Source: a virus (taxonomy: Duplodnaviria > Caudoviricetes). Taken from it: a stretch of 64,000 nucleotides of DNA. Location of the stretch: the IMG/VR virus record IMGVR_UViG_3300020045_010129, positions 2,688-66,687 of that record. One strand, given 5' to 3'. The notes beneath the pieces were generated by a model that saw nothing but the letters and a program-made list of their open reading frames with translations, had not been told where the DNA came from and searched no databases. Shown piece by piece: positions 603-60,757 of the stretch. How positions within the stretch are numbered: position 1 is the first letter of the stretch; the number at the start of each line of letters is the position of its first letter. The translations under genes were made by a program, and so were the position numbers.

Positions 603-631
603 CTCTTTTTAGTTTTTATTTTCGCCCGAAA

Positions 632-3600
632 TTAATCAATAAATTCATCAAAATTTATCCACCCAATAATATTATCAGGCTCTATGTGATATGACATTTT
701 ATCTAACCATTCTTTTCTTGAATGTACATATACGCCAACTTCAAATCTTGGATAACCACCTTTTAAAATTATCAGTAATGGTTTTGTACATTTTAAATCT
801 CGTCCAATATCATCATAATATGTATAGTTAGATTTGTCTTTAGGTATATTTTTATTTATCTTCATCTGTTTTGTGCGATTTATAAGTCATAATTATTAAC
901 TATGTCTTGAACTTCATTTACAGCACCTCTGTATAAGAAACCGTAATTTTTATCTATTTCTACAGAAGCTTGTGCAACCATTTTATTTAGTAGTTTCTTC
1001 GTCGGCTCTTTAGTAGAATATAAGCTTATAAAAATACCATCTCCTAAAAGTGAATTATTAGTGCTTATTCTTACATTGATATCATCAATATATCTATAGC
1101 AAGACCTATCTTTTCTATAACTCTCTCTGTCATCATTATCTACGGTTGTAAACCAAGCATCATTCAAAACAACTTTGTATTTAGATACACCTAATATTTC
1201 CAGGTTTTCTATTGTTATTCCGTCTTTTTGATAACTATACTTCGGAGATTCTTTATACTTTTTAATTTCTATGTGCCAAATCGGTTGATTAACTGTGTAT
1301 TTCATGCGCTATCGCTTTAAATTGTTTCTTTTTAATTGTTTTTTGCGGAAAATTAGTTGATAACTTTATATTGCCTTTTTATTTATTTTTTGCCGATTTT
1401 AATTCTTTTAAAACATCCTGTAAAATATATTTTCGAGCCAAAAAAGAATCAACATTTGGTAGACTGTTAATCATACTTTCTACAACAGCTAGTTTATTCT
1501 CTACAATTTTAATTGCTTCTTCCATGTGTTACATTCTATTAGTGTTTCAATTACTACTATAAATACATTATTGCTCAATTGTAAATTTTTGTCATAACTT
1601 TGACATATTTTTGTTTTCCAATTTTTATCGGCAAAATCTGTATGTTCAGCACCATCAGGATGTATCCAAATTTCAACATTAAAATCTTTCTTAATCTTCT
1701 GTATAACAGGGATTAAAGCATCAAGACTATTCCAATAACGTAAATCTCTATGATATCTACAAACATATCTATAATACATACTTTCAAAAAGTTTCCATCC
1801 GTTTTTATTATGATAACGAAGTAGGTTTATGTTGATGTTTATCTTTTTTACCTCTGCTTTATCTTCTTCGCCGACTTTATAAGAAGTTTGCGTTACTTCT
1901 TGTATGTTAGGTTCAGCACTTACTGTTTCATACCAACCTGCTTTCATTCCTTTTTCTTTCAATTCCGCCGAAAAAGGTAGATAAACAAGATTCATATATT
2001 CAGCTATTAACTTACTACCATTTATAATCTCTGCTTGTGTCATACTACTCTATTTTAATTGTTATCCATTTATACTTCCACGGCATCCATTCCTCCATAT
2101 AATAGAATTCATTAAAGTAAGTAGTTCTGTACTTTATCTTTTCTTGCCGAATTATGCACCACCCAAATAGCTCTCTAGTAAAGTGAATTTCGCCAAAAAA
2201 AGTAATAAAAAACAGAGAAAAACAGATTACTTCCCTAAACTTATTTAATTTAATCTCTTGATAATCTGAAGTTACACTTCCTTCTAATTCTTCCATAATT
2301 TCTTTTCTGTTTTTAATTTTCTTTTGCGATAAATTGCTTTCTATAAGCTATACTATCCGTAGTTGAGCATTTTATAGTGTCTCCTATTTCATATTTTTTA
2401 TAGTCGATTTCATATAGATAAATTCTACCTGTTAATCCGCCGTTATACTTTAAATTAAAGTAAGCACCTATTGGAGGATTACTTTTATGAACTACAATAC
2501 CCCCGCAATATTTTTCAATAGGCTCTTTGGCGCAAGAAACAGTAAAACAACAAATTAATATTAATAATAACTTTTTCATAATTACATATTTACATTAAGA
2601 TTCTTTCTAATAATTGTATCGATTTGACTTGACATATTTTGAAAATAACTATACCTTTGTATTGCAGGAGTATCTGCTATTTCTTCTACTAAGAGTTCAC
2701 CAATTTTAATTAAACTGTTTTTATATTCTAGCATTTCAGGTGTTGATGGTTTTAATTCATCAAGACACTCAAGTAAGAGAAAATTAATCGCTACTAATTT
2801 ATGTGCATTTTTAATTTCTTTTTTCGGATTCATTTTTATTTGAAGTTTTTGTATATTACGTCATTCAACATAATATTAATATCAGTTAAAGTGTTTCTAA
2901 CATTGCCTGTTGGGGTATTTGAAATGTCTTGCTGTATCTTTTTTGAGATTATTTCCAAATCCATAGTTATTTCCGCAATTTTATCGTAGATATTTGCTAA
3001 CGTTTCGGAATGTTCTTTTAGTGGTGTCATCATAATTTTATTCTTTTAAACAGTTTAATATACTTCCCTCAATAACATACGGTACATTTCCAGTGAAATT
3101 AAAATTCATTCCTACTTTAGCTTTTTCCGCCGCAACAGAAAGAACAATATCACCGTATTCCCCTAACCATTTCTGAATTTCATAAATAGAATAAGATTCT
3201 TTAAGGCTTACTACTCCTTTTGATATTAAAAATTCGTGTGCTGTCATAACTGTTCTTTTAATTCTCCAATTGTACTTTTATAACTGTCTCTAAACAAGTT
3301 AAATTTAAGCGTACCTTCTTTTTCAGTTTCATATAATTGTATTAAAGCATTTTGAAAACTAATAATATTATTTTTAGTAGTGTGTGTTCTATTTGATTTT
3401 AAATACTTATCTACTACTTGGTCATAAGCTATTATAAAACTTTCAGAAGCAGTTCTCATTTCTGTATTCCACTCTTGTTCATTTATTTTTGCGCAAAATT
3501 GATTTCTTGCTTCTTTTAAATAATCTTCAAATGTTTCCATAGCTATTTAATATTTTCTAGTGGATAAGCATTTATAATTGAAAGTTCTCTAGCTTCTTCA

Positions 3601-3812
3601 AAGTCGTTAGCTTCAGGCATTAATTCAACGTCATCTAATTCCACTCTACTAGCTTGATTTAAAGCTTCTTCCACGTGCATTTTTGTAAATCTTCTCATTG
3701 CTTCAAAAACGTGTTTATGTAGACCTAATTTTCTAAGCTCTGTTAACATACTAAATTCTTTTTCTGAGCTTATAACTTCACTCCAAAATTCTTCTGCTGT
3801 TGGTAAATTCAT
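632..3812 (-). other. Array of small, tightly packed hypothetical CDSs (65-180 aa)
   Basis: Co-oriented ORFs with near-abutting or overlapping stops and starts; no recognisable domains. Confidence 0.7.
2313..2579 (-). CDS. Small predicted lipoprotein
   Basis: MKK, hydrophobic stretch and lipobox-like VSC (MKKLLLILICCFTVSCAKE). Confidence 0.55.
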   Translation of the reverse strand: MKKLLLILICCFTVSCAKEPIEKYCGGIVVHKSNPPIGAYFNLKYNGGLTGRIYLYEIDYKKYEIGDTIKCSTTDSIAYRKQFIAKEN

Positions 3813-3832
3813 AGTTTCTTATTTTTATATTA

Positions 3833-3863: not shown

Positions 3864-3935
3864 GAAAATTTCTGTTTATTTTTCATTTTTCGCCGCAAAA
3901 AACAAAAAAGACAGCTAAAAAACTGTCTCTAAAGA

Positions 3936-5036: not shown

Positions 5037-5642
5037 CTATTCTTCTGTTTTTATCTTTTTTGCCCAATATTGTCTTACTTCTTCCTCTCTTTGTTCATAG
5101 AATTGTAAAATTACAGAGTCCTCAACATGGTTTTTGAAGTCCCCATATCTTACTTTATTTCTGTCCATGAAAAGATTTTCTAATTTACGTGTATAAATAT
5201 GTTCTTGGAGAAAAAATTCGCAAAGGTAATAAAAACGATATATATCTAATCCTAAATGATTTTGTAATACGGCTATATATTGAGTTATTAATTTTTTATT
5301 ACCTACTACTCTCTCTTTATCCTCATTTGATAAATACATGGAAATTAAATAGTCTCGCATTTTAACATGCTCCTCTAAAATTTCAGGAGTTGTTATATCT
5401 TCTAAAATCTTTTTACCTTTCGCCGAAAGTCTTATTAAATTATAAGGTGTTTCAGACTTCTTTTTTTGCTTTACAGACTCCAATAGTCCTAATTCATATA
5501 GTTGCTTTAAATCAGCTGAAAAGGCTTCATTTGACAATGTTTCACTCTCATCATTAGTCCGATTTTGGTTTGCCGCGAAAAGAACAGGAATAAAAGAAAC
5601 AGATAAATTTAATTGCCTAAGTAATGAGAAGTTAATGTACAT
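5037..5642 (-). CDS. Winged-helix protein upstream of the helicase (possible replication accessory or loader)
   Basis: LKQLYELGLL...IRLSAKGKKILE resembles a wHTH recognition helix and wing; the functional guess is from position only. Confidence 0.4.
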   Translation of the reverse strand: MYINFSLLRQLNLSVSFIPVLFAANQNRTNDESETLSNEAFSADLKQLYELGLLESVKQKKKSETPYNLIRLSAKGKKILEDITTPEILEEHVKMRDYLISMYLSNEDKERVVGNKKLITQYIAVLQNHLGLDIYRFYYLCEFFLQEHIYTRKLENLFMDRNKVRYGDFKNHVEDSVILQFYEQREEEVRQYWAKKIKTEE

Positions 5643-8481: not shown

Positions 8482-8505
8482 CTGTTTTATTTCTTTTTTC
8501 GCCGA

Positions 8506-14799: not shown

Positions 14800-16360
14800 A
14801 TTTTTCTAATTTTATTTTACAAATGTAAGTATAATTTTCGGCATAAAAAAGAAAAACAGAAGAAAATTTACTTTAAACCAACATTTAAATACAACCACGT
14901 TAACTCATAAGGAGTAAAGTCTTCAATATTCTGAATTATAGTTCCCTCTGTTCTTATTATTTTTTCGCCGAAATCAGTAAAAAGATAGTAAACATTTAAT
15001 AAATCTAAACTCTTAGTAAAATATAATGAATATCTTAAAGATATTTCAGATTTATAAATATCAATGATGGTGTTTACCCAAGATTCATTTGCTCCTAATT
15101 GTATGGATATGTCTTCTGGATTGATTAAAGGATTTTCAACATATACTTCAATTATCTTCTGTTTTAATCGTTTCTGTGACGGTTGCATTTTTACTAAACT
15201 TTAAAGCTAATATCTTTCTTTTTACTGTGTTTACAGATTCTTTATTGACTCCTCGTTGCCAATAAAATTTTTCTATTCTTACAATTCTTTGTAGGGCGGA
15301 TTGTGTGCTTTTAGGCATATTTAATCTGTTTAATAGTTGTATGAACCTCTTCGATTTTATCTAGCACTGTTTTTATGTCCTCACACTTCTCTAACTCTAA
15401 CTGCAAATATCTTTTAAGTGTTTGCTCAACTGTTAAAAAATACCATTCATCAGTAAAAGTATAATCTACTAATTTTCCTGTTTTCTTTTTAGTTTCTTTA
15501 TCTACCTCTTCTTTTTGGCGGGTTTCGGTTAGTTTTAAAGTGCATCCACTTCCGTCTGTTATAATGCTATACTTGTCGTTAATTTGTATCATAATTTATT
15601 TATTTTTAAGTTTTTATTCGGCGACTCCAAGAGTTATTTTATTTTTAAACCAATCTGCTTCAACCAAAGTGTCGCAAGTATGGATAACCTCTTCATCTTC
15701 AAATGGTATATAATCTCCTCCTCCATTACCGTATGATGGGTCGCACCATCTTTCACCAATAGATTTTAAGATTAAATCATAAACCACTCTATCTTTTCGA
15801 AACCATTGTTTTTTAATTCTTGGTTTTATTATGTATTCTGTTGAATCCGTGTAGGTGTTTTTCATAATCCATAAGTAATTTAATTGTAAAATATAATCTG
15901 CTTTCTCGTCACATTCTTCTACGGTTTTACCAAACACTTGACAAAAGATATTTCCTTCTTCATTTATAATGTAATGTCCAAACCAATCTTCTCGTATTTC
16001 ATCATAACCTAAATCTGCTCTTAGTTTCATAAATATTCTTCAATTAATTCATCTAAACCTATTTCATCCATTTGATTAATCCAATCAATAAGTCGTGCTC
16101 TTTTTTCTTCTAGTTCCATAAATTTTCTGTTTTAATTGTTTAAGCACTCGTGTCTCGTATGCGCCGAAAAAATAAAGAAACAGAGGTCGGAGATAATTAC
16201 TGCAATGGAAGATACTACCTTTTATCCACTACATCCGTTAATACTGTTCGGAATCTGCGCTATTAAGCCTAGTAACAGCTCTGTTTCTAAATTTCACTCA
16301 TCTTTCAGCCTCTCAGTTTTTGTTCTGTTGGAGTTAAGGCAATTAAACAACACTGTGTTT

Positions 16361-17157: not shown

Positions 17158-17779
17158 TCTTTTAATATTTTAATATATCTCGTCTTACACCTGACTAGTA
17201 AGCAGATTGTATCAACTTTATAAGATAGATAAGAGTGGATATATTTTTAATTTGTTTTTATCCGCCGTAAAAGTGCTCTTCAATAGCTTCTTCTACTTCG
17301 TCTTTATCTAAATCACAATCATCTTCGCAATATTGAAGAAAACTTTCCATGATACCATATTGATTAATAAAGTCGTGCATTAATTCTAGTAATTTTTCTG
17401 AATCTATCATATTTATCTATATTTCTTCATATCAGCAATAAACTGATTACCTTTTTCTACTCCCATTCTACCTCTGATTTCAGCACCTTTTGATATTTGC
17501 CAACTAGAAGATGAAGTGTCACCTGTTCTTGCATTGTTTGCAAATCTGTTTAATCTTTCATTTTTTGATTCTGACCTGTTTGAATTACTTCCCATAATTT
17601 TTTGTTTTATTTGTTAATTTATTTTTTGCCACGAAAAAAGAATAAGAACAGATAACCAAACTATTTGTTATTGCCAGTTTTCACAAGCCCTTGGATTTAC
17701 ATTTAATTACTTTTTCTTGCTACAAACCCATACGGTCTGTAATCCCACTACTCAAACAGTCTGTTCTTATTTTCTTCTA

Positions 17780-20226: not shown

Positions 20227-23200
20227 ATCTTATTTTTTACAAAGGTAATTAATTATTTTATTATCTCCTAATTTTTCGCCAAAAAAGAATTAAAAACAGT
20301 TATTCCTCATCTTCTATCACTAAATAATTAACATCTGTTTCTTTTGTCTCTCCGAGTATTGTTTTTACAGTTCCTTGCTTTATAATTTCGTTTGCTGTTT
20401 CTATTCCTTTTTCGCGGAAAATAAAGTCTAGTGTAGATTGCATAAAAATTTCTCTCATTTTCGTTCAAATATTGTAGTTAATACTTTCTGAGTGTAGATG
20501 TCTATTTCAAATGTTGGTTTTTCTTCTTTCATAATTATTCGAATAATTCAACCAACTCTACTAAATAATTATAAACTTCTGAATATCCCGAAGAATGTCC
20601 TTTTTGCCACGCGCAATTCCAAACTTTATCTTGTTTGTCTTTTGGAACTATATTATATAATCCTGCATCATCTTTAAGATAGTCTTCTAAGACTGCATGT
20701 AACTCTCTTACTGTTTCGCTTTTTCGGTCAGTTGCTATCTTATGGTTTACAACTTCAGCTTCATATTTCTCTAATTCTTCCGCATATTTTTTAACTTCTA
20801 TAGATGTTGGATTAGATTTTAGTATTGGTTTTATAGGTCGAGGTATGTAATCAGGTTCTAAGTCTTTAACGTAGTCAATTGCTTCATAAGCTGAAAACTT
20901 TTCTAAATCTAATTTTGATGGTATTCTCATATCTTTTTATTTTTTGTTTAAACTCTTTTCGCGCCGAAATAAAACCCAAAACAGAGAAATTCAAATTCTA
21001 ACTCTCTTGAGTTTAAGTTAATATTAATTGCAGGAATCAAAGCCCAAAATTCTAAGTTTAAGACGATGTTTATTTCTATTTTAATGTCTTTCATAATCCG
21101 TTTAGTATTTCTTGTTTAATTTCTTTTTCCCGCGCCTCAATCTTCAACCAATCGGTTGTGTTTTGCGATGTTAAATTGTCTGATTTGGAGGTATAGATTA
21201 AATCCTCTAAAAGAGTAATTTGTTCTTTTTTAAACTTAAAGATAACATTGTCTTCTGTACTTTCTCCGTCTTTAGCCCAAATTAATGTAGACTGACAACT
21301 TTTAGCTATTTGTTGTAAATTATAAACTAAACTGTTCTGTATTCTTATGATGTCCGTTGCTAACTTTAACTTTGTTTCTAGTACTTTTATTTTATCTTCC
21401 ATATCACAAATTTACTAATTATTATTTAGTTTTCCTAATTTTTATGCTGTTTTTATTCTTTTTGCGCGAAATAAAAAAAAACTAAACTTTAACAGCCCAA
21501 CTTGAAGAACTGCCATCATAAACAATTCCTCCCGAAGTATTAACTACTGTTGATTTGTATTGCTCGCTCATTCGTAATCCTTCTATACGCATTGGAGACT
21601 TAATCATACCTGTCGCACTTAAAAATAGCGTATTTTTAGGGAATTTTTCTCTTGCTTGCTCTAGTAATGTGTTTGATTTCATAATATTTTCTGTTTTTAT
21701 TTAATAATTTCTTTTAGTTTCTTAAATATCTCTGTTAAATGTTTTGCGTTTCCATAAGTATTTATAAATGTTCCTTCTATTTTTGTCGCCGTAAATAAAG
21801 ATTTAACAAAATAACTTTCTGGAAAAAATCTTGATTGACAGGCTTCTAATATATCAGGAAATGTTTCTTCTGTTGTGAATAAACCACAAAGCCAGTCGTT
21901 CTTCCTTTTCTTTATTAGGATGTAAGGGTGTTTAAAAACTGAGTGCATTAATACATCTCCAACTTTATATTCGCTAGGTCTTCTTTTTTCGTTTGAAGCA
22001 GGGAGAGTATTAAGCCAACTGACTAACTGTTCGTGACTATACTTCTTATCTTTTACTTTTTGTAATATTTCGTCTTTGTTCATTTTTCTTCTGTTTTATT
22101 TCTTTTTGCGCCAAATTGTTCTAACTGAAACATAGCTCCCTGACTATCTGCGCCAATGTAAATATCTCCTTTACCTGTTATTAACCAATAACCGTCTTGT
22201 TTACTGTAAAGTATTTCAAAATTTTTATCTATTGATTCAGCAAACTTAATTAATGTCTTTACTCTAAAAACTTTCTTTTTCATTTTTTATCCTCCGTATT
22301 TTAGCACCCAATACCCCAATAAGATAGTTATTTGAGTGATTAATATCATATATACTATTTTTCCACCATATCTAATATAGGTTTTAAAGTTATATACTCC
22401 TGTTACGTTATGATTAAGTTCAAAAAATCTTAAAACGTGTTGGTAAATTACTAATAATAGCCATAAAAATACTTCTTGTATTATCTTTATTTGTTTTTTA
22501 ATTTCTCATCTTCATCAAATTCTATTAATAATATTTCCGTAAAAGGAATTAACTCTAATTCTATCATAAACTCCCTTACTGTATTATATCTACTCATTGA
22601 AGTTGACGGCAGCATAACTGATGTAATTGCTTGTTGGTATTCTCTTCTTAATAATTGTGTTGGTTTCATAATTTTTTAGTTTTATATTACAAATATACAA
22701 ATAATTCGGCGGAAAAACAAATAAAACAGAGAAATTATACTTTAAAAACAGAAACTTCCCACTCTTCAAACTCATATAAACCACTCTCAAGTAAACAATC
22801 TAAATATTTCTGAACTAAATATATCTCATAAGTGTAAAATTCTGTTCCTTGTCTATGATTAAGTTTAGCCACTCTTAGTAAGTTTAAGTTACAATCAACT
22901 GCTTTTTTAAGTTTTTTCTGCGACGTTTCTTTTTTAAATGCTTCAATACATTTGTTAAGTGTTGTGTTAAATCTACGCTCTTCTGTTTTGGTTTTGAATT
23001 GGTACATAAATTTTCTTCTGTTTTTCTTTTATTCGGCGATTTCTGCCGCCATATACCAATCAGGCACGTAATTAAGATTATTTTCCTTATTAAATTCCCA
23101 ACAAAATTCATTTGCTTCTTCAAGGGTGTCAAACTCTTTTATTTCATCTAACATGCTTCCCCAACCTCTTGTAAATTCTCTGATTTCTACTTTAGTTTTC

Positions 23201-26900: not shown

Positions 26901-29900
26901 TCGTGTAAAAGAATACTCCCACAATTACCGCAAGTTACTAAATTAAATCCTGCGCTTTGCATAGCTTCTTGTATTCTAATTTGATTTTCAGCTAATTCTC
27001 TATTTGTTTTCATAGTTGAAGCAATTATATTGTTGTTTTTAAAATCTCTCGTTAAACTCTTCTTCGCTTATTTCTTCAACATAATCTACTAAATAAACAT
27101 CTCCTTTTTCCTCTAAATATGGTGCAACTTTTTCAATATCTACTCCATAATCTTCAAAATCATTCCATTCTTCAGTGTCCATAATTCCTACTGAATAACC
27201 CCCTCGTCCATAGTTTACGTGAACATCATAATAATACTTTTTCATAATTTCTATTTTTAAATGTTATTCAAAGATAAGTTAAAACTTCTATATCTTTTAA
27301 TTAGGATGTTAATTATTTTTTACGTAAGTGCTTTTTGTATTGTTTTTGCCGATTTTCTAGGTTTATAGTTATAACTTCCAAAACTTATAACATTCTTAGA
27401 AACTGTTTCGTGCATCTTTTCGGTTGTTTCTTTACAACTTTTTGATAATCTACCTATTAACTGTCTATAAGTTAAGCAACCGTTATTAAACAATTCTAAA
27501 GTGTAAGTTGTTGTATGATAATCTTTACTGTCCGTATAACCGTGTTTTTCATTTGGAAAATAAGTTGCTCTTAATTCTTTTGCAACTTTATTAAAAAAAT
27601 CTTGCGTTGTGTGTATCATAATTTCTAAATGTGTTTATTAATTCTACTGTTTGTTTTTTATTTTTTGGCGCGAAAAAGGTTAAAAAGAATAAAATATTAT
27701 TCTACTTGACAAAGCCTTAAACCTATATCTGTGTTTACTATAACACACCAAGTACCTCCCTCTACAACGTGTTTTAATTCACTTAAAGGATAATCCCATA
27801 ATTCTCCTTCAAAATAATCTTGAATTTCTTCTAAAGTAGTTTCTTTATTATAGTGAGGATAACCTACTTTTTTAGCATATTGCTTTAATGTTCTTACTTT
27901 CATAATTATATTTTGTTTACGCAATACTACAAAGTGTGTAGTTAATTGCAATTAGAAATTCGGTAAAAAACTAAAAAATAAGTTGTTTATGTAAATCATT
28001 ATAATTAATACTCTTATCAACAAACTGTTTATCATTATCAAATAGGATATACATATCAACTGCAATAGAATTAAATCTATTATCTGTGTGTTTCTCAATG
28101 TAACCGTTTTTAGCGGTTGTTTCTCTTTTAGTTTTAGTACGTGCCATAATTATTTAGTTTTTGTCTTAAATCAACTGTTTTGATGCTCTGTTGTTCTTTT
28201 CTTGTTTCAATTCCTTTTTGCCGCGAAATTAAATAAAAAGAACGGTTAAATTTTAGAGTAAACAAAAGTGAGTAAATCAAACAGTTCAATATTCTTTTCG
28301 CTTTTATGGTCGCCCACTCGGTAAGAATAATAAACTTCAATATAAGTTCCCCTGTTCTCAAAATTTAATACTTCGTAATCATCGTAAGCACCTGTAAAAT
28401 TTAAGTAGTCTGTCAATAGTTTATAATAGTCCATAATTTTATATTTGTTAAATTTCAACTGCAAAAGGAATTTCAATATTATAGCTAGTCAATGTATCAT
28501 AACAGTAAAGATAAAATTCATTTTCTTCATTTGTTAATCCTCTTTCTTGTTCTAATAGTGTAAGAGAATATAAAGCGTTAAGTAAATGTTGCATAATTTT
28601 TATATTTTAATTGTTAAAAAGTGGTTTTATATTTATTGCTAAAAGCCTTAAATTCATCTCTTAAAGTTTTGCTCTCTAAAAAAGCTTTTTTCTTAATACA
28701 AATAGTGTCATACACTTCTATAATCCAATAATCAATGTATTCAATACTTTTCTTATTCACTACATAAGAGGGAATATTACTTTTGTAATACGGTGTAATA
28801 ATAGAGAATGTTTTTTGTAGATTTCCATTTTCTCCGTGAGATACTAAACTATTTCTTTTTTCTGTCTTTGATTTTAAAGGCGTAAATACAAAAGCCTTAT
28901 AACTAATACAAGATTGAATAGAATTTGTTTCTAAAGGATACCAACCACAATCTAAGGGTATTACTTCATTTGTTATTAAATCTTCCAAAAATACCTGCAC
29001 TCCCCACTTTTCATCTAAACGGCTGGAAATAAATACTTTTAATTTATAAATAGGCTCTAACATAATATTATTTTTTAAAGGTTAAAATCGCGGGAAAAAA
29101 GAATAAAAAACAGATTAAAACTGTTTCATAAAAGCATCCCATTCAAAAGGATTAGATAACATATCATTCATATTCTTATTATCGGGGAATAAACGTAAAT
29201 TTGAAAACATCTGTTTACTTACTGCAAAATCTCTTTGTATTGCGCCAAACTGTGTGATAAAAATACTGTCAAATGTACTGTTATCCATTTTAGTAATTAA
29301 ATGAAAACCTCCACGTATTTGAACTACTCCTATAACATCGTTTTTAAGGGTATTTAATTCTTGTTGTGCGTTTCTTATTGATTTCATTGTGATTGTTGTT
29401 TAAAAGGGTTAAAATTGTAGTAATGGTAAGTAAGGATTAATAAACCTTTGTATCTTATTTAATTCTTCATCTGTTAATGTGTAACGCTCTCCGTAATTCC
29501 ATCTAAAATGCGCTTTTGGTAGATTTCCTTTATGGCTTAGTTTTTCGTTACCGTCTTTATCTGTCCAATCGTGGTAATCTTCATCGCCTCTTATATTACT
29601 TCTTAGCCTTTTAGTTCCGCGCGAAAAAGAATTTAACATAATTAAAACGTCTGCTAAACCGTTACCCTTATCTAACATATTCTCTACTTTTTTAATCAAA
29701 GAGTATTGAGTTTCTGTTAAGTTTAAAACCTCCGCAAAAGAACTGCATTCTCTATAACTCTTATCTTCATTTTGAATTAACTGCTTACGTCCTTTATCAA
29801 AACCGCTATATTCAATATGATGACCATTTTTAAGATAAATATAATTCCAATTTCTTTGGCTTATACTTTTATTTTCGGGCGAAAAAACTAAAAACAAATC

Positions 29901-30710: not shown

Positions 30711-33700
30711 CTTTGTAAATGCTTATTCTCATTGGGATTGTTACCAATTAGCTTCTTTCATTTGCTTTAAGACTTCTATACAATTCTTTTTAATCTCTCT
30801 TAATTTGTTTTGTACGTCTTTACGTTGTTGTTTGTCTTTTATGAATACCATACCTCCAATTATTAACTGTTGTACGTACTCGTTTACTTGTTTATCGTAT
30901 GTTTCCATAATCTTTTTACTGTTTTTAATTTCTTTTTGCGGATTTTATGACCTGTTTTGCCTATCAAAACTCGTGTTTATTACTCCCAAAGTTATTTTTA
31001 CCACCTCTTTGACTCTTTATAAGTACTTTTTGTGGGTTATAAATTAAATATTTACCAGTTTCCCACCATTTTAAAGATTGATTTCTGTAAATTGTGCTTA
31101 CACTCTTATCAATTAGGCTTGAAACGGTTGTTTTTTCTTTAATTACATAACTTTCTTGGGTTGATTTATCAATTATTATATACATTTTGACTTGTTTTGG
31201 TTATCAATAAAAAGCAAATGTAGTATATTTATTTGAATTAACCTAATTTATTTTACTGTTTCTTTTTGTTTTGCCAAATTTTCATTATACCATTTAATAA
31301 ACTCTAAACAAGATTTATAGACTGCTTCTTTTTTATTTAGATTTAGTCTTTCCCCGTCTATTCTTATACAATCTATACATCTTTTAGGAAAGTGTAAAAA
31401 AATATCGTTATCGCATATATGTAAATGACCTTCTACACTTTCAATCTTTTCTACTACTTCCATTAACCAATTCCAATTTTTATGAAATTCTAAATCTTTA
31501 TCAATTACTTTATAATTTTTACCATCGTTTGAAGGAATTTCAAATATTAAATAATCGCCTTTTGTTTCTGATTTATAACCTAAAAATTCCGCTATAATCT
31601 TATTGTTTTCTGTTTTCATCTTAATAAATTTTTCTGTTTTTACTCTTTTTTCCCGCCCCTAAATAAACATCACTTTCAGGCTTGGTCTTTGCCAGTTCGT
31701 CTATTAACTGTTGTCTTATGTAAGTTGCTAGAACTCCATATTGATTTAAAGCAAAGTCTTTTGCTTCTTGTTCTGTTACTTTTTTATTTAGTATGTTTGT
31801 TACTGTTGTGATTAAACTGTTTTTCATTTTCTTTTGCGGGAATTAAATGGCTTTTAAAAATCTGTTATCGATGTTTGTCTTTACATTTATTATCTGTTTA
31901 CCTTTGAAACATTTAATTTCTGTTAGTATGTTGTGTTTTAATTCTTTTGCGCCCGAAATATGGTTTGATACTCTTACTATCTTGGTTCGTTGAGGTGCAT
32001 TTACAAGCCGTTTAAAGAACTGTTTTACATTTACAATAGTCCTGCCTATCTTATTAACTTTAATAGTGTTTAACTCAAAGTTAATACTGCTGTCTTTTAT
32101 TTTACAATGTTTATCTGTTTTCATTTTGTTTGCGGTTTTTAGTTTCTGTCTTTTAGTTTAATATATTTTGAACTCACATTATCCCAATTCAAAGCAAATG
32201 TACAACAATTAACTACAACTGTCTTTTGGTTAAATTTTGGCTGTCTTATACTACTTGAGTATATTGCTTTCACTTTGCCCTCACTATCCTTTAAAATAGT
32301 TGTTTGAGAATAACTACTTTGCCATTCTCGGTAAACTGTTAAGACTAACATTCTATTTCACGTATTAGAATAGATAATTCGGGGTTAATATTCCCTTGAA
32401 AATCTTTATCAAAACAACGTCCACCACCTACACAGTTAAAAATATAGGCTTCATCTTCATTAAGGTTTAATTCTTCCCTTAAATAATCCCACAATTCCGC
32501 ATAAGACAAATCAAAAAACAGTTCTTTTAAAGCGTCCTCACTTGCATCTGCTCCCCTTATCATATCACTAGACAACTCTCCAAAATTATCAGCCATATAA
32601 CAAAGCAATTCTTCTTTGTCATCTAAATAAGGTTCAATAGTTTCATCAAACTGCTCCCTACTTATTGGCTCAAACTTACTACCTGTAGCACCTTTAAAGC
32701 CATCTTCATAAGTAAATATGCCATCTAGTACAGTAATTTCTTTTGTTTCTTCATCGAAATTAACTATCTTGTTGTATTTTGTTTCAGTTCTCATAATATT
32801 ATTTTATTAAATGGTTTGGAATGCAGTATTTATTTGCTTGTTTTTCTGTTATTTCACCCGACTTTTGCAAATGGTCAACATAATTATTATATGCTTCACA
32901 ACGTGCAGGAATATCTTTTATCCCGTCCTGCTCGTACTGTTGTTTAATTTCGGGCAAAAGAAAAGTAATAAAAGAACTATCTACTTGGGACTTGTTTAAT
33001 GTTTTCATAACTGTAATTTTTATTTGTTAATTTATTTTTCGCGCAAAAAAGACTATAAAACAGTTAATTTAAAACTGTAAAAAAGTTTAAGTAAGTGTGT
33101 TTATAAAATATCTCTATCTTATCGGTATGTAAGTTTTTAAGTCTTACATGAATAATATTTGTAAACTGTGGCATAAATTCGTTTACATATTCAAATTGTC
33201 TTTGACTGGTATTGTGTAATAGTTTCATAAGACTATAAGTTTAATTTATTAACAACATACTCTATATCTAAGTGGTGTATAACTCTATAATCTTTTAGCC
33301 TGTTATCATTTATATATAAATCTAAATGCTTGCCTTTGAAATAATATTTAATTTCATTTTTGTCTAATAATTGTATTAATTCTTTCATAATTTCTTAATT
33401 TAAAACCGTTAATAAATCTATATTATAAATCTGTTTAGCTTGTTTAATAAGTTCACACAAAGAAAATGCAAACAAATTAAAATTATTACCTCTTAACTCG
33501 AAGTAACAACCGTTTTTAAATACTTGTATCATACTCGCCTAATTTATATCTATTCAACATATTTATAATACCCTCATTAACTTTAAATTTATCCCCTTTT
33601 AAACCAAAGTATTTCTTAACTATATTGATTTTAAAGTTTCTATTCGGTGTAATTCCTACGCAATATAAGTGCATATCTCGTTTAGTAGTTACTAAGTTGT

Positions 33701-40715: not shown

Positions 40716-41444
40716 TCATTTAGCCACACTATAACCCACAAAAGCACCGATGGCTACTCCCACAGGAATTAATATTTTATTTAAGAAACTTTTTGTTTTT
40801 AATTTCTTATTCTGCTTCTCTAGGTTTTTTATATTTTCTTCTGCGGATTTTTGCAGTTCTTTATCTGCCTCAATTGTTTTTTCGGCGGAAAAAATTAAAA
40901 CAGACAAATCTTCTTTATCTTTATTCAAATTAACAATCTCAACATCCTTATTCTTTAACTGCTCATCTTTTAAAGGGATAATCTCTTCACATTTAAATCC
41001 TTCCTCTAAGTTGGTGATTATCGCCGTAGAAGTAGTAAGTCCTAAACCAACCTTATCTTCAACAACAGCATTTTCATCTGTTTTATATTGTGTATTATAA
41101 TAAGCAACAGAAGAAGTTAAATCATTTGGTACTTTTACAACTCGTTTTTTAATTCCGTCGATTTTATCTTGTAGAGTTCTATCTCTAAGTCTTAACCTTT
41201 TATTTTCTTCTTCGCGCGATGTAATGGCTTTAGTTAGAGAATCTTTCTCTTTCTTTCTAAACTGTTCTAATAAAATTACATTCTCTTTCTGAGCTTTATA
41301 TTGCTGTTTTAAAATAGTGTATTCTCCTTGTAGTTCTTGAAGCTTATTATTATTCCAATTGTAGAATATTATGAATGCAATAGCTAATAAAGCTATAATT
41401 ATTTGATGTTTGTAAGCTTTCGCCTGTTGTTTTACTTTTTCCAT
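40716..41444 (-). CDS. Membrane-anchored coiled-coil protein (possibly spanin-like)
   Basis: N-terminal TM (IIIALLAIAFIIFY), long heptad-rich middle, C-terminal hydrophobic tail. Confidence 0.4.
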   Translation of the reverse strand: MEKVKQQAKAYKHQIIIALLAIAFIIFYNWNNNKLQELQGEYTILKQQYKAQKENVILLEQFRKKEKDSLTKAITSREEENKRLRLRDRTLQDKIDGIKKRVVKVPNDLTSSVAYYNTQYKTDENAVVEDKVGLGLTTSTAIITNLEEGFKCEEIIPLKDEQLKNKDVEIVNLNKDKEDLSVLIFSAEKTIEADKELQKSAEENIKNLEKQNKKLKTKSFLNKILIPVGVAIGAFVGYSVAK

Positions 41445-42678
41445 TTTTATTTGTTTTTATGTTATTTCTATCTTTGTTCCATATTTACTAATTGCAAATT
41501 TTATTAAGTCTTGGTTCTCTGTATCAATAACTTCTTCTAAATCCACAGGTTTTTTATTTTTATCCCATCTATCTTTATATAAATATATTTTACTATCGTC
41601 CATATTACAGTAAAAATAATTTTTTGGTAACCCTGTCTTTTTAGATAAGATTTCCCATAATTTTGGGAGATATTTTTCCATTATTTATTACAATATTTAC
41701 AATTATCCTTTTCTTTTACGTTTTGATGTATGCTCTTATTCTCGTTACAATACCATCGATTTTCATAAGGTATAAATCCTTTCTTTACATCATAATATCC
41801 AGGATTCCAATCTTTATCTTCCATATCAGTTATGTTCTATCGTTCCTAGTATCGGCACATAAGCATTACCTACTACCATTCCTTGTTTTTCTAACCTATT
41901 TTCACTTTTTGGCGGCGAAAAAGGTAAAGAAACAGAAAATTTATAATCCTTAAAAAACTCTATCAAATCTCTTAATTCTTGAATATTAGCATCACCACTT
42001 AGTAGCTCTATTGTTTTTGTTTCTCTATTGATTGTATATTGTATCATTATATTTAACGTTTAAAATTAATAATATCTCACCTTTAACTTCATACCAATAT
42101 TTTAGATTAGGATTTAATTCTCCTCTTCCATCTCCTAAATAAGTATCAATATAATCCCACTGTTCTATAATTTCATCTACTGCCACTATAGCATTATTAA
42201 TAGAATCTTGATAAGTGTCTCCACTCATTTTATCTATTAGCTGTTTAGCTTTATCTATTGTTTTCATATTATTTCATTTTTATACTTTCTAAATAATGTG
42301 TTCTCCATTTAACATCTGCTTCTACAGACTTTATTATCTCAGGAACTACATAATCTATTTCTTCTTGTGTTAGTTTTCTGCCTTTGTCAGGATAACCTAA
42401 AAACCATTCTCCTTTCGTCTCAGAACGTATTCTACCATCAAGACAAACTTCAGCGTCTTTCATTTTAAAATAAGCGCAGAACCATCTGTTTCTAAAACTT
42501 TTTGTACCGCCGTCTCTATAACTGTCGTATTTAGTCATATTTTGTTATTTTATTTTCCGCGCAAATTAAAGGTGTAAAGCCAAGAATAACAACAGAAATT
42601 TTACATCACAAAGATAGTAATAAGTTTTCACACTACCAAACAAAACAGAAATTATTTTAAAATAAAGTGTTAGCACAC

Positions 42679-45157: not shown

Positions 45158-45902
45158 TTGTTCTCTGTTTTTGTTTATATTAATTGTTATTTTTATGATT
45201 CAACTTAGCTTGCTTTTTCTCATCTTTTGTAAAATAAGATTGGGCTTTTACTAAATAGTTTGTTTTATCTTCATTGAAGAAGAAGTTTCTAACTATTTTT
45301 GAACCGTCCTTTTTTCTTTCTATTTCGTGCGATACTAGTGTTTCCATTTTTATTTATTTAGTTGTTTAATTTATTCTTCAAATATACAAATTATATTTTG
45401 TAATTCCTAATTTTTCTTCTGTTTTTATTTTGTTTTCGGCGATTTTTTAAATTTATTTTTAATTCGGCGGAAAAAGAGTGAAACAGAATCTCTTAATTTC
45501 TCAAACCAAGTCCTAGTTAAAAAGTCGAGATAAAAATCAATCTCTTCCGAAGTTTCTAACACTGTAATAGTTAGACCGTCTTGTAAAAATATTGTAGTGA
45601 ATTCATCATCTGTTACCATCACTTTTATTTGGTCTTCATACACAACTATATCAGAAGTAACTTGTTCAAAATCTTCATCTTCTAATTCTACGCCATACTC
45701 TAGTTTCTTTAACTTTTGTACTAAAGAATCAGGTAATGGTATTCCTAAATCTTGATACTGTTCTTCTGTAAGCCCATTATCGCAAGTTGGTACTTGATAA
45801 GAGTCTTCTTTTTCTAATTTCTTTTCGGCGGCTTCTGTTACTACTTCGGCAATTCCCGTTAATGATAGTCTTATTCTTTTCATACTTCTTATTTCTATTC
45901 TA

Positions 45903-47160: not shown

Positions 47161-47408
47161 TAGGAGTGTATATTATAGGTTGCATTGGCATTTTCATAAC
47201 TAACTCTTCTATTATTTTTTGTTGTTTTACATTTATTTCGGCGATAATAGAAATAGCAGAATATAAATCTAAACCTTTATAAATAGAATTTACTACACTA
47301 TTAAAAATAGCATTTGTATTATACAACTCTTGTCCGTTTGGGAATTTATCTATTAGTTCTTTCATACATTTTATTTATTTTTAAGTTTATTTTTCGGCGC
47401 AAAAAGTT

Positions 47409-47586
47409 AAAAAAGAGAAGAATACATCCCACGGTAGAACAGGCTTACTTCTCTCGGCTCATCAATACTATCAATGAGGGGGCATCACCGTTAAAATAGA
47501 AAGACAACATACTCTGATTTCTCATTCGTGCACCTATACGGAATAATAATCCGCTAAAGTAGTTGTTTGGGAGCAACTTTCTATTT
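47409..47586 (-). ncRNA. Candidate sRNA or structured leader between a promoter and a terminator-like hairpin
   Basis: Four hairpins; the last is GAGAAG/CUUCUC followed by U6. Confidence 0.45.
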
Positions 47587-52022: not shown

Positions 52023-52236
52023 CTATAAATTGGTAAAATTCCTGTATCTTTTATTAGATTAAACAGATTATTTATAATTATATTTTCTTCAACTCTAGAA
52101 TTTGCATATTCACAAGCTTTATTTAACTTTTGTTCAAAGGATAATGTTTTACTTTTGAATATTGTTTTATAGTATTTTGAATCTTTATCTTTCATTCTAC
52201 AAATATAAGTGTTTTATTTTTAATTTCCTACTGTTT

Positions 52237-55200
52237 TTAAATCTTTTTTGCGGAAATTTTACTATTTAATTCTTTTATCAACTCTTTATCAAAAACTTCC
52301 AAGGCAGGGTTATAGTCTAAATAACAATATCCGTGACAAGTTGATTGAAATTTTCCTTTATTTGTTTGAATTATTTTTATGTGCCCGAAAGGAGGTAATT
52401 CTTCAATACTTTCTATAATTAATTCTAAATCGTTACAAAAGTAAGTGTTACCATTACACAGTAAACTTTTACATTTTTGACATCTTTTCATTTTTGCCGA
52501 AAAAAATTAAGAAAACAATTCTCTAACTGCTCTTCCAAGTTCAATATCATTAGGAATAGATTTCACTAAAGCTGTTATTTCCGTTATGTTATTATACTGA
52601 TGCAACAATGGATTAATTTGTATACCAAAAGAATCTTTTACAGTTTCTATTTCGAGAACAGTTCTATTGGAAAATCCTAGTTCTTTACACCTTTCAATCG
52701 TAAGTTCTAAAAGCTCTCCTATTGTTTCAATCCTCGCTTGTTTTAAGCTATTTAAAGCTCTTACAGATATGTCTAACTCTTCTATTGAGTAAGTTATTAT
52801 TTTATCTTGTATCATTCTCGTCCTATTATTTGATTTAAAATTTCATCTTGTTCAGGAATATCATAATCTATATTTTCTCCTGTTTCTACAATTTTTATTT
52901 CCTGTCTCATTTCTTTTTCGGCGATTTTATCACACAGTTTTTTCTTATCAACACCTACGCAATAGTGACAAGTACATTTATACCGAGCTTCTTTTTTCTT
53001 TAAGCTTTCCTTATATGTTTTACCGTTTCTGTCTTTTCTGTATGTATTACTCATCTTCTACCCAAATATGTAAATCTTCTTCTAATAAATTCTTTCCGTT
53101 GTAAGCAGGATTGTTTATAGTTTTCCACTTTTTCCCGCATCGTTTGCACAAACATTTACTTGGCATCCAAGTAAAATTATAAGAATATTTATGCCCTATT
53201 ATTTTACAAATTAGTTTTTCCATATCTAATAATGATTGTAAATTAGTATCACATCATTTGCATCCTTACCTATTCCCCAAGACGGAATAAATTCATCAAC
53301 TGTATTTTCTAAAACACTGCTATTTTTATAAGTCTGCCATCCGTGATTAATAAAGTATTTATCTTCTACTCTTTCCGCAACTACTGGAGCATCTTCTGAT
53401 AGAGTTTCTCTATATTTATCAACAAACTTAATTAAGTCTTTAAACTTTAAGTAATGGTCTATGTTTTGTAAATCTTCTTTTTTCATTTTATCATCTTTTT
53501 TGCACGGAAATATTTATAAACGTGGTCGTATTCAGACTGTTCAAATAAGCCTCCAGCACATAATATTAATTCTCCATCAATTACTCTCCAATGTTTTCCA
53601 CAAAACCAGCAACTATTACTGTCTGTTTTGAAAGGTTTAATTACTTCTTTGCATAAATCTTTACTCATAGTTTTTCTTTTTTTGCGCGAAATAAAAATTA
53701 AAGAAGAGACTGTAAATCCTGTATCATAATCTGACGCATTTCATATTCAACTTCATAGCGTATCTTACTCTCTTTTAAAGCATCTAATTCTTTATAGTCT
53801 AACTTACTCTCTTCTATTTGTGATAGTTCTTCGAGAAGATATTTTACTTCTGTTTTTGCCGTTTTTTGTTGGAGTATTAGCTCCTGTATCTTTTCTTTCA
53901 TTTGTTTTTTGCGGATTTTAAGTTTTCAAAAGCCTCTTCAAAAGCCTCATTAAACTGTTCTTCTGTTGTTAAGTTTTTAAGTTGGTAATCCTCGATATAT
54001 AAAGGACTGTTGTATAACTCAATTTTAAAACCGAAGTAAGAATGTTCTATATTAATTTGAGTTTTACCATCCCATTTTATATATTGGTCATTACAACCCT
54101 CATCTTGATAGTACAAATATATTGGTAAATCAATATCAGTTTCTTTTTCTGTTACAATTCTTTCTGTTGTTTTTAGTTTCATATTTTTTGGTTTTTAAAA
54201 TATATTCTTTCAGGATAATAACCAAACACTAATAACGTAACAGCGCAAAGCCATAAATGATTCTTATTTAAGTATTCTGTCTCAAACTCAATATCCGAAG
54301 ACATAACCTCATAAGTTGCACCATTTAAAAATCCTAATTTAACCCTTCTTTCAAGCCTATCAGAATATTTAAATCCAAACTTACTTGTAGATATATTTAA
54401 TACAACTTCTTCTGTGTTATTAGATAAACTATCCAACATTTTATCAGCTCCACAAACCATAGCTAAATGCCCTCTATTAAAAGGAAACCATTTTAAGTCT
54501 ATAAACCAACCGTATTCGTCTTTGTAAAATCTGTATGTGCTCATAATCTATTCTTCTTCGTTAATGAAAAATCCACACTCAACATATTTTTTATGGTAAT
54601 GCGAAAGATAAAGTACTGTTTGTCCGTCAGTAAAAAGATTTCTCGGTTTCTTTAACTTTGCGCTACGTTTGATAATTCCTTGTCTGAATAGTAAATCAAA
54701 CTGTTCGAAAGTCATATGTTCAAATGAATCGCTGTTTCTTACTCTGGCTACTTCGGCGATTTGCTCCTCTGTATATTCGTAAGAGATTAATCTTTCTTTA
54801 TACTCTTCCCAACTCTGTTTAAACTCGTTTTCCATATTTTATTTTTCTGTTTTTATTTGTTTTTTGGCGCGAAAAAAGATTAAAAAGAAATTATTTAAAA
54901 TTTTTACCAAAAAATAATATCCTTCTATCTAACTGCTTTTTATACTCCCAATCTTTTACTTCTTCTGCTAAAAGCCTAACATTATCAGAAACAGAAAATC
55001 TTGTTGTTAAAAGTCCGTCTTTGAAAGTGTAAGCGAATATATTCTCGTCTTCTACTGTTTCGAAGAATATATCTAGTCCTAATGTGAAAAATTGTTTCAT
55101 TACATTTACCGTGTTTTAAGTTTTTTAATTATAACTTTATATTACTGATTCAAAGCGTTTAATCAACTCTTTATCTTCATCTGTAAGTTTTCTAGACTTG

Positions 55201-56763: not shown

Positions 56764-57081
56764 AAATAAAATGAAAAATCCTCAACGAAAAAAGCTTAAA
56801 GTAGGAGGAGCTTAATCCGAGAGGAAATTGTTTTAAGTATTTTTATAGTACGCCTCCTACAGCATAAATAATTTTAGATATAAACTGTTAAAATTTCCGC
56901 AAAAAGAAATAAAAACAGAAGAAAAAATAAAGTAACGATTTAATGCTCCTAATAAGAATGCCTTTAAATAACATTCAGAAACCTCAATCTAACGCCCTCT
57001 CACGCTTTACTTCTTAAAAACACCCTGAAACCTACTAATGCTATTACGGCAAGGCTACTTCAGGACTTATGTTTTACAAAG

Positions 57082-57112: not shown

Positions 57113-57154
57113 GTTACTTATTTTCTTTTTGCGAAATTATTTTATTTGTAAGAG

Positions 57155-58039: not shown

Positions 58040-58476
58040 AAAAGTTAAGTTATATTGAAGACGTATTAAAAGAAGCTCTAAGAAAAAGTGATTTTAAAAC
58101 AGATAAATGTTTAAATTATGACAGAGCTTTAGAAGCTGTAAAGATAATGTTTGATTACATAGCTTTTGAAACAAAACAAGAAGATGTTTATGCGGTTGAG
58201 TTACCTAGATTAGGTACGTTGTACAAAAGTGTAAGGCTTCTAAAAAACTTTCCTCGCGACGAAGAAGGAAAAATAGAAAATCAAATTAAAACTCTACAAT
58301 ATTTCACAGACGAGAACGGAATAAGTAGTTATCACAATAAAGTCCCCTATGCTTGGACGTATCACAGATATATAAACAAACACTTTGAAATAAATAAATT
58401 AACAAGAATGATGCCTAAGATAAACTTAGATGTTATTGCGGCGACAGAACAATTACAAAATAACAAAAACAGATAA
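58012..58476 (+). CDS. HU/IHF-like DNA-binding protein
   Basis: ALEAVKIMFDYIAFE...AVELPRLGTLY resembles HU helix 2 and the V.L.GFG.F strand. Confidence 0.45.
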   Translation: MQRNNNTTVKKLSYIEDVLKEALRKSDFKTDKCLNYDRALEAVKIMFDYIAFETKQEDVYAVELPRLGTLYKSVRLLKNFPRDEEGKIENQIKTLQYFTDENGISSYHNKVPYAWTYHRYINKHFEINKLTRMMPKINLDVIAATEQLQNNKNR

Positions 58477-58483
58477 AACAGAT

Positions 58484-60115: not shown

Positions 60116-60117
60116 AA

Positions 60118-60441
60118 ATGAACAAGTTTCTAAAATGGTCAACGTGGCGAAGTATAATCCAATCGAGGACAACGGATTATAAAAACAGCAAAACAGATTG
60201 GTGTAAAGAGCGAAGAGCAATATGTAAAGACTGCAATCACAATTCGGTACATTATCCAACCAAAACAATAAAAGAATACTTACTGAGGTTAATAAATTTG
60301 GGTAACTACTGTTTGTGTTGTTGGTGTGGAATCCGACAGAAGACCAGAAATGCTTACAGTACTTGCGGACTAGTAGAAATTAACGAACCACCAAAATGGG
60401 AAAGAATAAACTTAAATACAAAATATCAAAATGCTAATTAA
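60118..60441 (+). CDS. Cys-rich hypothetical protein
   Basis: RRAICKDC, CLCCWCG, TCG motifs. Confidence 0.6.
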   Translation: MNKFLKWSTWRSIIQSRTTDYKNSKTDWCKERRAICKDCNHNSVHYPTKTIKEYLLRLINLGNYCLCCWCGIRQKTRNAYSTCGLVEINEPPKWERINLNTKYQNAN

Positions 60442-60757
60442 CAAATCAACAAATCAAGAACTAGATAAAACGGGAAATATTTATCAATATGATTTCGGCG
60501 CAAGAAAACAAAATACAAGAGTTGCTGTAACTTTGCAAGTTAAGGGAAATAACATCAGTAAACTAACCTCAACAGCCGATTGTAGCTGTACAAGCACAAC
60601 GCCAAACATTATAGATAAAGACACAATAGAGATAGATATCATTTATAAATCATCTCACGTAATACATAACATAAAGAGAGAAATCTTTATAAACTATTCA
60701 GAGAACGGTGAAAACAAACTAGAAACAATAAAAATAACAGGTCAAATTACAAAATAA
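60431..60757 (+). CDS. DUF1573-like Ig-fold protein
   Basis: YDFG ... STADCSCTST motif typical of the Bacteroidota DUF1573 family. Confidence 0.55.
   Translation: MLINKSTNQELDKTGNIYQYDFGARKQNTRVAVTLQVKGNNISKLTSTADCSCTSTTPNIIDKDTIEIDIIYKSSHVIHNIKREIFINYSENGENKLETIKITGQITK

Follow-up and report, generated by a model that had tools for sequence, protein, structure and literature searches.

A G/C clamp with a one-sided A-rich arm recurs at gene boundaries in the early region of an uncultured phage

UP elements are A/T-tracts at about -38 to -59 that are bound by the C-terminal domain of the RNA polymerase alpha subunit (alpha-CTD), the consensus of their proximal subsite being AAAAAARNR. The p4 boxes of phage phi29, CTTTTT-N15-AAAATG, are read by a small phage regulator that touches alpha-CTD, and both runs are required. 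Among other short elements, T7 class II terminators carry ATCTGTT followed by a U-run and are read by a T7-like single-subunit RNA polymerase, repetitive extragenic palindromes (REPs) form GC-rich hairpins, and HIP1 consists of a single invariant 8-mer. The early regions of phages are already known to hold repeated regulatory motifs, for example the T4-type PeSLs, each made of a host-type early promoter plus a stem-loop and pointing with the genes (PMC2839356), and the intergenic repeats of halovirus HF2, which also have the orientation of the genes and whose promoter activity was demonstrated (PMC8707807). The present analysis concerns a repeated unit in bases 2688-66687 (64,000 nt, hereafter the window) of one 66.7-kb virus contig, IMGVR_UViG_3300020045_010129, here labelled G000. 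What sets this unit apart is that a G/C clamp is combined with an arm of phased A-tracts on one side, that either orientation occurs and that some copies are embedded in codons. The first-pass annotation did not recognise it as a described element, and this holds as far as the literature searched shows: no description of the motif was found there, and the text of the phi14:2 paper does not give the sequence of that phage's middle-promoter motif.

The unit is a one-sided word of about 25-30 nt that is found in both orientations. Its consensus consists of AAAATT, a core of 3-8 nt made of G and C only, and A5-6 G A2-3 T A4-5 CAG, often followed by AAGAAAA; in summary form, the arm is roughly A6-G-A3-T-A5-CAG (18 nt). 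Within the arm are two A-tracts with a centre-to-centre spacing of about 10.5 bp, and the distance from the core edge to the end of CAG peaks at 17-19 nt on both strands, which bears out the earlier claim of a CAG/CTG distance peak. On the coding strand, reverse copies appear as a T-arm starting with (T/A/C)TCTGTTT and match the reverse complement of the A-arm position by position (G at +6/7, T at +9/10, CAG at 17-19). The core sequences are varied, with more than 35 different ones (CCGC, CGCCG, GCGC, CGCGC, CGGGC and others) that are G/C-only and never homopolymers. Core length and arm length show no correlation (rho -0.12), and therefore the arm is set from the core edge and not from a centre of symmetry; together with the varied, G/C-only core, this points to a structural clamp and not to a base-specific box. 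The copies are degenerate, being about 70% identical. An independent repeat finder recovers the same families, in which U-arms and A-arms are 75-88% complementary as families (inverted pairs I1-I25), while the longer repeat families D10 (a 60-nt repeat), D18 and D13 include the unit together with a promoter or start. A separate and looser tendency is that any G/C core has T's before it and A's after it.

The unit is strongly enriched, as had been predicted. A simple pattern of core, A-arm and ACAG (G/C run, A-run, 8-13 nt, A[AG]ACAG) occurs in 42 copies, compared with 1.3+-1.1 in 200 dinucleotide-preserving shuffles. Likewise, TTT-core-AAA is found 58 times vs 7.9+-2.6 expected, whereas its mirror, AAA-core-TTT, is at chance (9 vs 7.9). 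Against a third-order Markov background, 41 units vs 6.8 were counted on the - (coding) strand and 28 vs 1.35 on the + strand, which leaves an excess of 34 coding-strand and 27 other-strand copies, about 60 in total, with 28 of the 69 units inverted. When codons are permuted within genes, about 20 copies are lost, as opposed to about 1.4 expected by chance, and therefore the signal is also, in part, written into codons. Across the dinucleotide, Markov and codon-permutation controls, the overall enrichment is 5-30 fold. G/C-only runs of at least 6 nt are 2.3 times more frequent than expected, with a density 5.5 times that of Cellulophaga phage phi4:1; in phi4:1 (33% GC), TTT-core-AAA occurs 13 times vs 14 for the mirror, and the signal is absent. 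All 23 sites cited by the first-pass annotation proved to hold the sequence attributed to them, position for position. Its view that the signal is no generic compositional bias also stands, since enrichment and a distance peak were found and neither phi4:1 nor bacterial genomes carry the signal at comparable frequency.

The same cannot be said of the palindrome of about 40 bp by which the element had been defined. Among 393 T-run/core/A-run sites, a full arm was found on one side in 32, on the other side in 23 and on both sides in a single one, which is chance level (1.9 expected if the arms were independent). The flanks are complementary at 8.62 of 18 positions vs 8.65 expected from arm composition, the mean folding energy of the core with 20 nt on either side is -3.2 kcal/mol (weak RNA or DNA hairpins), and at unit-bearing sites the far side of the core has T only at -1 and -2 and is then A-rich. 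Since the arms are one-sided and do not complement each other, the unit is neither a 40-bp palindrome nor a hairpin or cruciform, and it is better annotated as a one-sided element, for which searches can use a G/C clamp joined to an 18-nt A-arm with CAG at its end. The proposed fixed span of about four helical turns holds for the two-armed site at 3872-3914 only, so that a DNA-level signal cannot be argued from symmetry and span in an asymmetric unit. Recognition of duplex DNA by a common factor is nevertheless favoured on other grounds, namely one consensus in both orientations, no excess of hairpins and no pairing: forward and reverse copies that lie next to each other resemble one another no more than randomly chosen pairs do (P=0.35), indicating neither partner-specific pairing nor recent local duplication. 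An integron attC site was dropped as well because the arms do not pair, and both a HIP1-like fixed palindromic word and a restriction-site or methylation target were dropped because the cores are too varied.

The setting of these copies is a genome region of 29% GC with an A-rich coding strand, on a contig estimated by CheckV to be about 47% complete. About 137 mostly small, co-oriented genes occupy the - strand up to about 57.4 kb, after which a + strand block carries GroEL, an HNH endonuclease and the start of the large terminase. The nearest named phages, phi4:1 and phi17:2 of Cellulophaga (Lightbulbvirus, 145 kb), are distant relatives (protein identity 36% for DnaB and 42% for terminase), and their maps have the same two-arm layout as the window; from this layout and the protein matches, the window represents the arm for early and replication genes in an uncultured phage of flavobacterial type that belongs broadly with phi4:1 and phi17:2. 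Its host is probably a member of the Bacteroidota, with which 28 intergenic TAnnTTTG boxes on the coding strand are consistent, many of them with TTG or TTTG about 19 nt upstream. The sigma-A promoter of Bacteroidota has the form TTTG (-33) and TAnnTTTG (-7), about 19 nt apart (PMC9723704). Sixteen of the 28 boxes have no unit nearby.

Within this arm, the units prefer gene boundaries. Their density per kb is 2.13 in intergenic DNA (an 18-fold enrichment), 0.73 in genes shorter than 200 aa and 0.33 in genes of at least 200 aa, where shuffles give 0.12, in agreement with the earlier impression that helicase, methyltransferase and endonuclease genes are poorer in the element. About 40 of the 61 intergenic gaps of at least 20 nt read T-run, core and A-run on the coding strand. 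Often the T-run or T-arm sets in 0-8 nt past a stop codon; from T-arm sites, 16-50 nt of A-rich sequence run up to the ATG, and the next ATG is found 16-52 nt (mode 25-32) downstream of the core. The commonest context is that of forward units which end 7-14 nt before the ATG of at least 10 genes, with no hidden -7 boxes found after these ATGs. Examples on the - strand are 22091..22112 (CAG 8 nt before ATG 22083), 2307..2328 (11 nt before ATG 2296; family D18), 30919..30941 (11 nt before the ATG) and 54847..54871 (12 nt before ATG 54835, with a long T-run on the other side). Another, 5045..5065 (-), precedes the ATG of DnaB by 12 nt and lies within the final codons of the preceding gene (WAKKIKTEE*), a peptide kept in L006.

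A second context links the unit to host-type promoters, in that 8 of 41 coding-strand units lie just upstream of one. The distance from CAG to the -7 box is 22-23 nt (CAG then abutting the -33 box) or 31-33 nt in seven of these eight and 16 nt in the eighth, and the A-tracts of promoter-linked copies fall at about -35 to -65, that is, in the zone of UP elements. At 8482..8504 (-), the unit starts 2 nt after a stop codon and its CAG abuts the -33 TTG of a TTG N19 TACATTTG promoter; at 52231..52253 (-), it lies 23 nt upstream of the -7 box TATATTTG, with the apparently leaderless ATG at 52195, and the arrangement is kept in L009 and L011. In family D10, the unit is followed by 8 nt, TTAGG N19 TAAATTTG and ATG 21402 in one copy (21447..21468, -), and by a 9-nt linker and TTAGG N19 TATATTTG in another (45419..45441, -). 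The only site with two full arms, 3872..3914, shows T-arm, core GCGGCG and A-arm when read on the coding (-) strand; it comes after a hairpin at 3907-3930 and before a host-type promoter, TTG N20 TATATTTG, with ATG 3812. The unit itself contains neither the TTTG (-33) nor the TAnnTTTG (-7) box and was thus rejected as a Bacteroidota sigma-A promoter in its own right.

Reverse units, with the T-arm on the coding strand, typically follow a stop codon and precede an A-rich leader or promoter, and four lie inside open reading frames (ORFs). The copy at 20277..20299 (+) runs from a TAA stop directly into CTG-T-arm, core GGCG and a host-type promoter. The copy at 29089..29113 (+) begins 2 nt after a stop, has its core 25 nt before ATG 29063 and is overlapped by a short hairpin, AAACAG/CTGTTT; at 33040..33063 (+) and 17628..17651 (+; family D13), the core stands 31 nt before ATG 33008 and 32 nt before ATG 17595, respectively. 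Two more are tied to promoters: at 22707..22729 (+), the unit overlaps a host-type promoter, its T-arm supplying the -33 TTTG and its core falling within the spacer 9 nt ahead of TATATTTG, and at 14838..14859 (+), the core is 11 nt before the -7 box TACATTTG. As the first-pass annotation had said, copies within ORFs, which are enriched too, shape the peptide: 41911..41935 (+), inside ORF 41826-42047, is read as SVSLPFSPPK, and 40880..40903 (+), inside the 242-aa ORF 40716-41444, as LIFSAEK. One exact match to the arm pattern, 56897..56918 (+), lies near the point where the two gene arms diverge. Reverse copies could not be explained as starts of small + strand ORFs, for which no ATG follows them, or as UP elements of antisense promoters, since none of the 28 other-strand units has a -7 box downstream.

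The same word occurs in the same contexts in relatives from IMG/VR whose RecA-like protein is 78-93% identical, namely G001 (142 kb, complete), G002 (130 kb), G003, G004 and L009. In these, CAG stands 5-10 nt before an ATG (four start-proximal cases), CAG is followed by TTG N20 TAnnTTTG, or a stop is followed by CTG-T-arm, core and promoter; the distances from CAG to the -7 box are 23, 23, 33 and 31 nt. The ortholog of the reverse copy at 29089 is kept in G001 (L017) with 4 or 5 substitutions and the consensus retained. With one pattern and at most 2 mismatches, 20 copies were found in G000, 9 in G001, 8 in G002 and 6 in G003, and 0-1 with reversed-pattern controls. TTT-S5-AAA occurs 19 times in G000 (66.7 kb) vs 5 (142 kb), 9 (130 kb) and 2 times in near-complete relatives and 0 times in phi4:1; copy number varies 3-8 fold between relatives. 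The L004 phage lacks the signal, as does phi4:1, and when one genome from each of 185,579 species of bacteria and archaea was searched, the arm word gave scattered single matches only, mostly coding. The signal is specific to this phage group.

Compared with the described systems, the unit resembles an UP element in that its arm begins with AAAAAAG(A/N)(A), similar to AAAAAARNR, its two A-tracts lie about one helical turn apart, and the eight coding-strand units above plus four copies in relatives are directly upstream of the -33 box of a host-type promoter. Unlike an UP element, it has an obligatory G/C-only clamp and a conserved CAG, occurs in both orientations and inside ORFs, and mostly lies away from recognisable promoters; the likeness is one of sequence and position. 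With the phi29 p4 boxes, it shares a T-run on the left, an A-run on the right and bent intergenic DNA between phage promoters, but there the runs are 15 bp apart vs 3-8 bp here, and the window has one long arm per site and dozens of sites instead of a handful. Many short copies, mostly intergenic after stop codons, in both orientations and sometimes in genes, are also a feature of REPs, bacterial interspersed mosaic elements (BIMEs) and HIP1, from which the unit differs by arms that do not pair and a core that varies. Similar to PeSLs (PMC2839356), it is a short repeated motif that punctuates small, variable early genes of a large lytic phage, with relatives whose genomes are mosaic around it; unlike them, it has no host-type promoter and no stem-loop, and 28 of 69 units are inverted. 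The HF2 repeats (PMC8707807) are likewise AT-rich, lie between virus genes and were first noticed from sequence, whereas the unit is of mixed orientation.

The reading that we favour, tentatively and with a probability of roughly 0.35, is that the unit is a cis-acting site of the early arm, read on the duplex in either direction by one protein of the transcription apparatus, as an UP-like or regulator-bound site. Since one consensus holds in both orientations with no hairpin and no partner pairing, each copy seems selected for a common reader. The freedom of orientation, the lack of pairing, the core defined by composition only and the arm set from its edge make recognition of duplex DNA by a common protein the simplest explanation, while the preference for gene boundaries, the fixed registers to starts and -33 boxes and the conservation in relatives tie that reader to transcription. 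The phased A-tracts, the UP-like start of the arm and its position at -35 to -65 are the reasons for placing an UP-like or regulator-bound site first. The A-tracts would offer a bent surface with a narrow minor groove, as in an UP element or the T-run/A-run boxes of phi29 p4, and the G/C clamp would fix the junction. A bound protein, putatively the alpha-CTD of the host RNA polymerase or a small phage regulator, might then, at the gene boundary next to it, raise, lower or time transcription. The nucleoid or packaging-protein site proposed by the first-pass annotation, taken as a code spread over the genome, fits poorly with the intergenic, early-arm concentration and with fixed registers upstream of starts and promoters.

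Several observations weigh against this reading. A recognisable promoter lies downstream of only about 20% of units, the commonest context, with CAG 7-14 nt from the ATG, gives a host-type promoter no room and does not follow from an UP-like role, and the enrichment within ORFs is odd for a promoter-proximal site. Moreover, the fixed registers could come from copying of longer modules (D10, D18) and not from function. In addition, the search of G000 and its relatives found no binding protein for the unit, and the one phage-encoded alpha-CTD is missing from relatives that bear the signal.

That ORF (52507-52815, -; 102 aa), which the first-pass annotation had named as a candidate binder, does match a free RNA polymerase alpha-CTD (PF03118, E=4e-11, above the curated cut-off) and retains the residues aligned with R265 and N268 (VRALNSLK). 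It has no close relative in IMG/VR and is absent from five related phage records, two of them near-complete and signal-bearing, and therefore, judging from its distribution, it cannot be the general reader of the signal; it is a putative reader of A-tract DNA in this contig. The ORF and the highest density of T-run/core/A-run sites coincide in G000 when compared with relatives without the ORF, which is a correlation of one. HU/IHF was present only in G002 among G000 and the relatives searched. No sigma factor was found by Pfam Sigma70_r2 in G000, G001 and G002, which is weakly consistent with transcription by the host RNA polymerase; a search of the same three for a T7-like RNA polymerase (PF00940) had no match, although control genomes were equally silent.

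Next to be considered is that the unit is a middle-type promoter for a phage-modified or phage-encoded RNA polymerase, which we regard as possible, if somewhat unlikely. Either the T-arm would be the upstream part, with the start at the core, or the core would be an upstream box, with the start at the CA of CAG. The size of 25-30 nt would suit a promoter, and so would a conserved distal triplet whose distance from a G/C block is fixed at 17-19 nt. Many cores, moreover, stand at the distance from the ATG noted above without a host-type promoter, close to the median 5' untranslated region of 24 nt in a flavobacterium (PMC9723704). The forward units ending 7-14 nt before ATGs (at least 10 genes here and four in relatives) fit as well, and no other candidate promoter precedes the gene that follows the terminator-like hairpin at 47.4 kb. 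Yet about 40-55% of the copies would fire antisense whichever sense is chosen, in an array of genes that are all co-oriented, and three copies (7202, 31817, 32115) have the called ATG within the arm. The lack of TAnnTTTG or TTTG boxes and of a sigma factor in the three genomes also counts against it, as does the unmatched single-subunit polymerase, with the reserve of its silent control.

Rather less probable is a role at the RNA level, in which stop codon, U-rich trailer, G/C block and an A-rich, unstructured leader would punctuate polycistronic early mRNAs. Such a leader would be needed by the Shine-Dalgarno-less ribosome of Bacteroidota, and U-arms and A-arms might pair over long range, for example as processing sites. 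This accords with the coding strand reading T-run, core and A-run at every site, with T-arms soon after stops and A-rich sequence up to the ATG, with the complementarity of the arms as families and with a reported preference of Bacteroidota start sites for A-rich, unstructured leaders (PMC6847099). A mere U-rich trailer, however, would not need to match the complement of the A-arm position by position as the reverse copies do; there is neither partner-specific complementarity nor a local hairpin, and copies inside ORFs and far from starts are enriched too.

It is also doubtful that the unit works as a hairpin-independent pause site or terminator, or as a bidirectional insulator, in which a U-tract is transcribed just before a G/C block that is hard to melt. 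The distal TCTGTT of the T-arm, (T/A/C)TCTGTTT, resembles the ATCTGTT plus U-run of T7 class II terminators, PF00940 being unmatched in G000-G002 with silent controls. Canonical hairpin terminators (G+C stem-loop plus U-run) are not enriched at window positions 1-20,000 (5 vs 5.8 in shuffles), only the hairpin at 3907-3930 coinciding there with a T-arm, and units do lie between a stop and the next promoter (8482, 3872-3914 and 20277; L026 in a relative). Three T-arms follow short hairpins (3907-3930, 29113 and 47400-47440). An intrinsic, rho-independent terminator was rejected, as the G/C block follows the T-run and does not precede it. Against any strong terminator, many T-arm sites precede promoterless genes, which would be silenced, full T-arms lie within ORFs on the sense strand (40880, 41911, 45462 and 2191), and half of the copies would stop antisense transcription only. 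Moreover, termination by bacterial RNA polymerase on a U-tract is not known to happen unless a hairpin or factor assists.

A more specific proposal, which we also think has little chance of being right, is that the free alpha-CTD encoded at 52507-52815 would bind the multiplied UP-like sites on either side of the clamp as a decoy or adaptor; as a decoy, it would strip the host polymerase's own alpha-CTD from these sites. If true, the phage could switch dozens of gene boundaries together.

The first-pass annotation had also suggested a handle for recombination; such a handle, or a small mobile regulatory cassette by which small early genes are shuffled in the manner of PeSLs, is disfavoured and appears quite improbable. 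The relatives are mosaic and align over core genes only, several homology blocks end beside units (54891, 45424), families D10, D18 and D13 hold the unit with a promoter or start, and copy number differs between relatives as given above. Nevertheless, about 40% of copies are inverted in the co-oriented gene array, where recombination would flip genes; the copies, at about 70% identity and with neighbours no closer than distant ones, bear no sign of recent copying, and homology between relatives ends at gene boundaries anyway. Finally, a by-product of base composition or codon usage, which the 29% GC genome, its A-rich coding strand and copies that are plain Lys/Glu-rich coding sequence (e.g., KIKTEE*) might suggest, is practically excluded by the 5-30 fold enrichment over the shuffle, Markov and codon-permutation controls, by the mirror pattern at chance and by phi4:1, which has a similar composition and no signal.

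Several neighbouring loci were noted besides. At 47377..47417 (-), a T-run directly 3' of a terminator-like hairpin is followed by core GCGCCG and an A-rich 30-nt leader before ATG 47365, and the whole arrangement is kept in L012. The hairpin belongs to a non-coding stretch, 47400-47640 (-), which is conserved above its neighbouring genes (87% identity in L007, 83% in L012) and has a host-type promoter, TTTGG N19 TATATTTG, at about 47600, then about 190 nt of conserved sequence and the hairpin GAGAGAAG/CTTCTCTC, with compensatory stem changes in L012; by its sequence, the region looks like a small RNA gene. At 16650-16721 (-), Rfam calls a tRNA (47.8 bits), whereas ARAGORN finds no tRNA anywhere in the window, which agrees with the odd T-arm of the Rfam call; the surrounding 16.2-16.9 kb have no ORFs and may hold further RNAs. 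A gap of 905 nt without ORFs, 34526-35432, contains reverse units at 35082 and 35145 as well as the palindrome ACGTGCGCACGT at about 35058-35070, and in G001 (L015) this palindrome and one unit are found again; the gap could be a replication origin or an RNA locus.

Among the host-type promoters, several -7 boxes have the ATG only 4 nt after them (TATATTTGtagaATG, TAAATTTGtgatATG; 52195, 21402, L009 at about 890 and L011 at about 9600), a spacing that implies putatively leaderless mRNAs, with the arrangement conserved in relatives. Five promoters have, instead of the usual TTG/TTTG, a variant upstream box, TTAGG or TAGG, at a distance of exactly 19 nt from TAnnTTTG (20226-20260, 21402-21440, 31185-31235, 45347-45400 and 52195-52230). 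A host-type promoter module of 45-60 nt (CTTG..N..TTGTATATTTGTAA), distinct from the G/C-clamp signal, makes up families D7, D15 and D16 (3823-3881, 11977-12035, 47583-47641 and 57072-57130; 11041-11085 and 36667-36711). In addition, a 98-nt direct repeat, 74% identical, lies in two different genes, at 5896-5993 (gene 5654-6358) and 48703-48800 (gene 48455-49201), and suggests candidate paralogous domains. The + strand block carries a full-length, phage-encoded GroEL-like chaperonin (58430-60115, +), which gave no matches when used as a probe for relatives, and an HNH/homing-type endonuclease (61785-63107, +) directly before the large terminase gene.

Gene regulation in phages of Bacteroidota is almost unmapped, and their hosts have unusual promoters and no Shine-Dalgarno sites. 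The roughly 60 gene-boundary copies provide a handle on the timing or insulation of early genes in this group. If one protein reads the signal, the early arm would have that protein as its master regulator; should the sites mark the starts or ends of RNAs, they would represent a new type of promoter or terminator.

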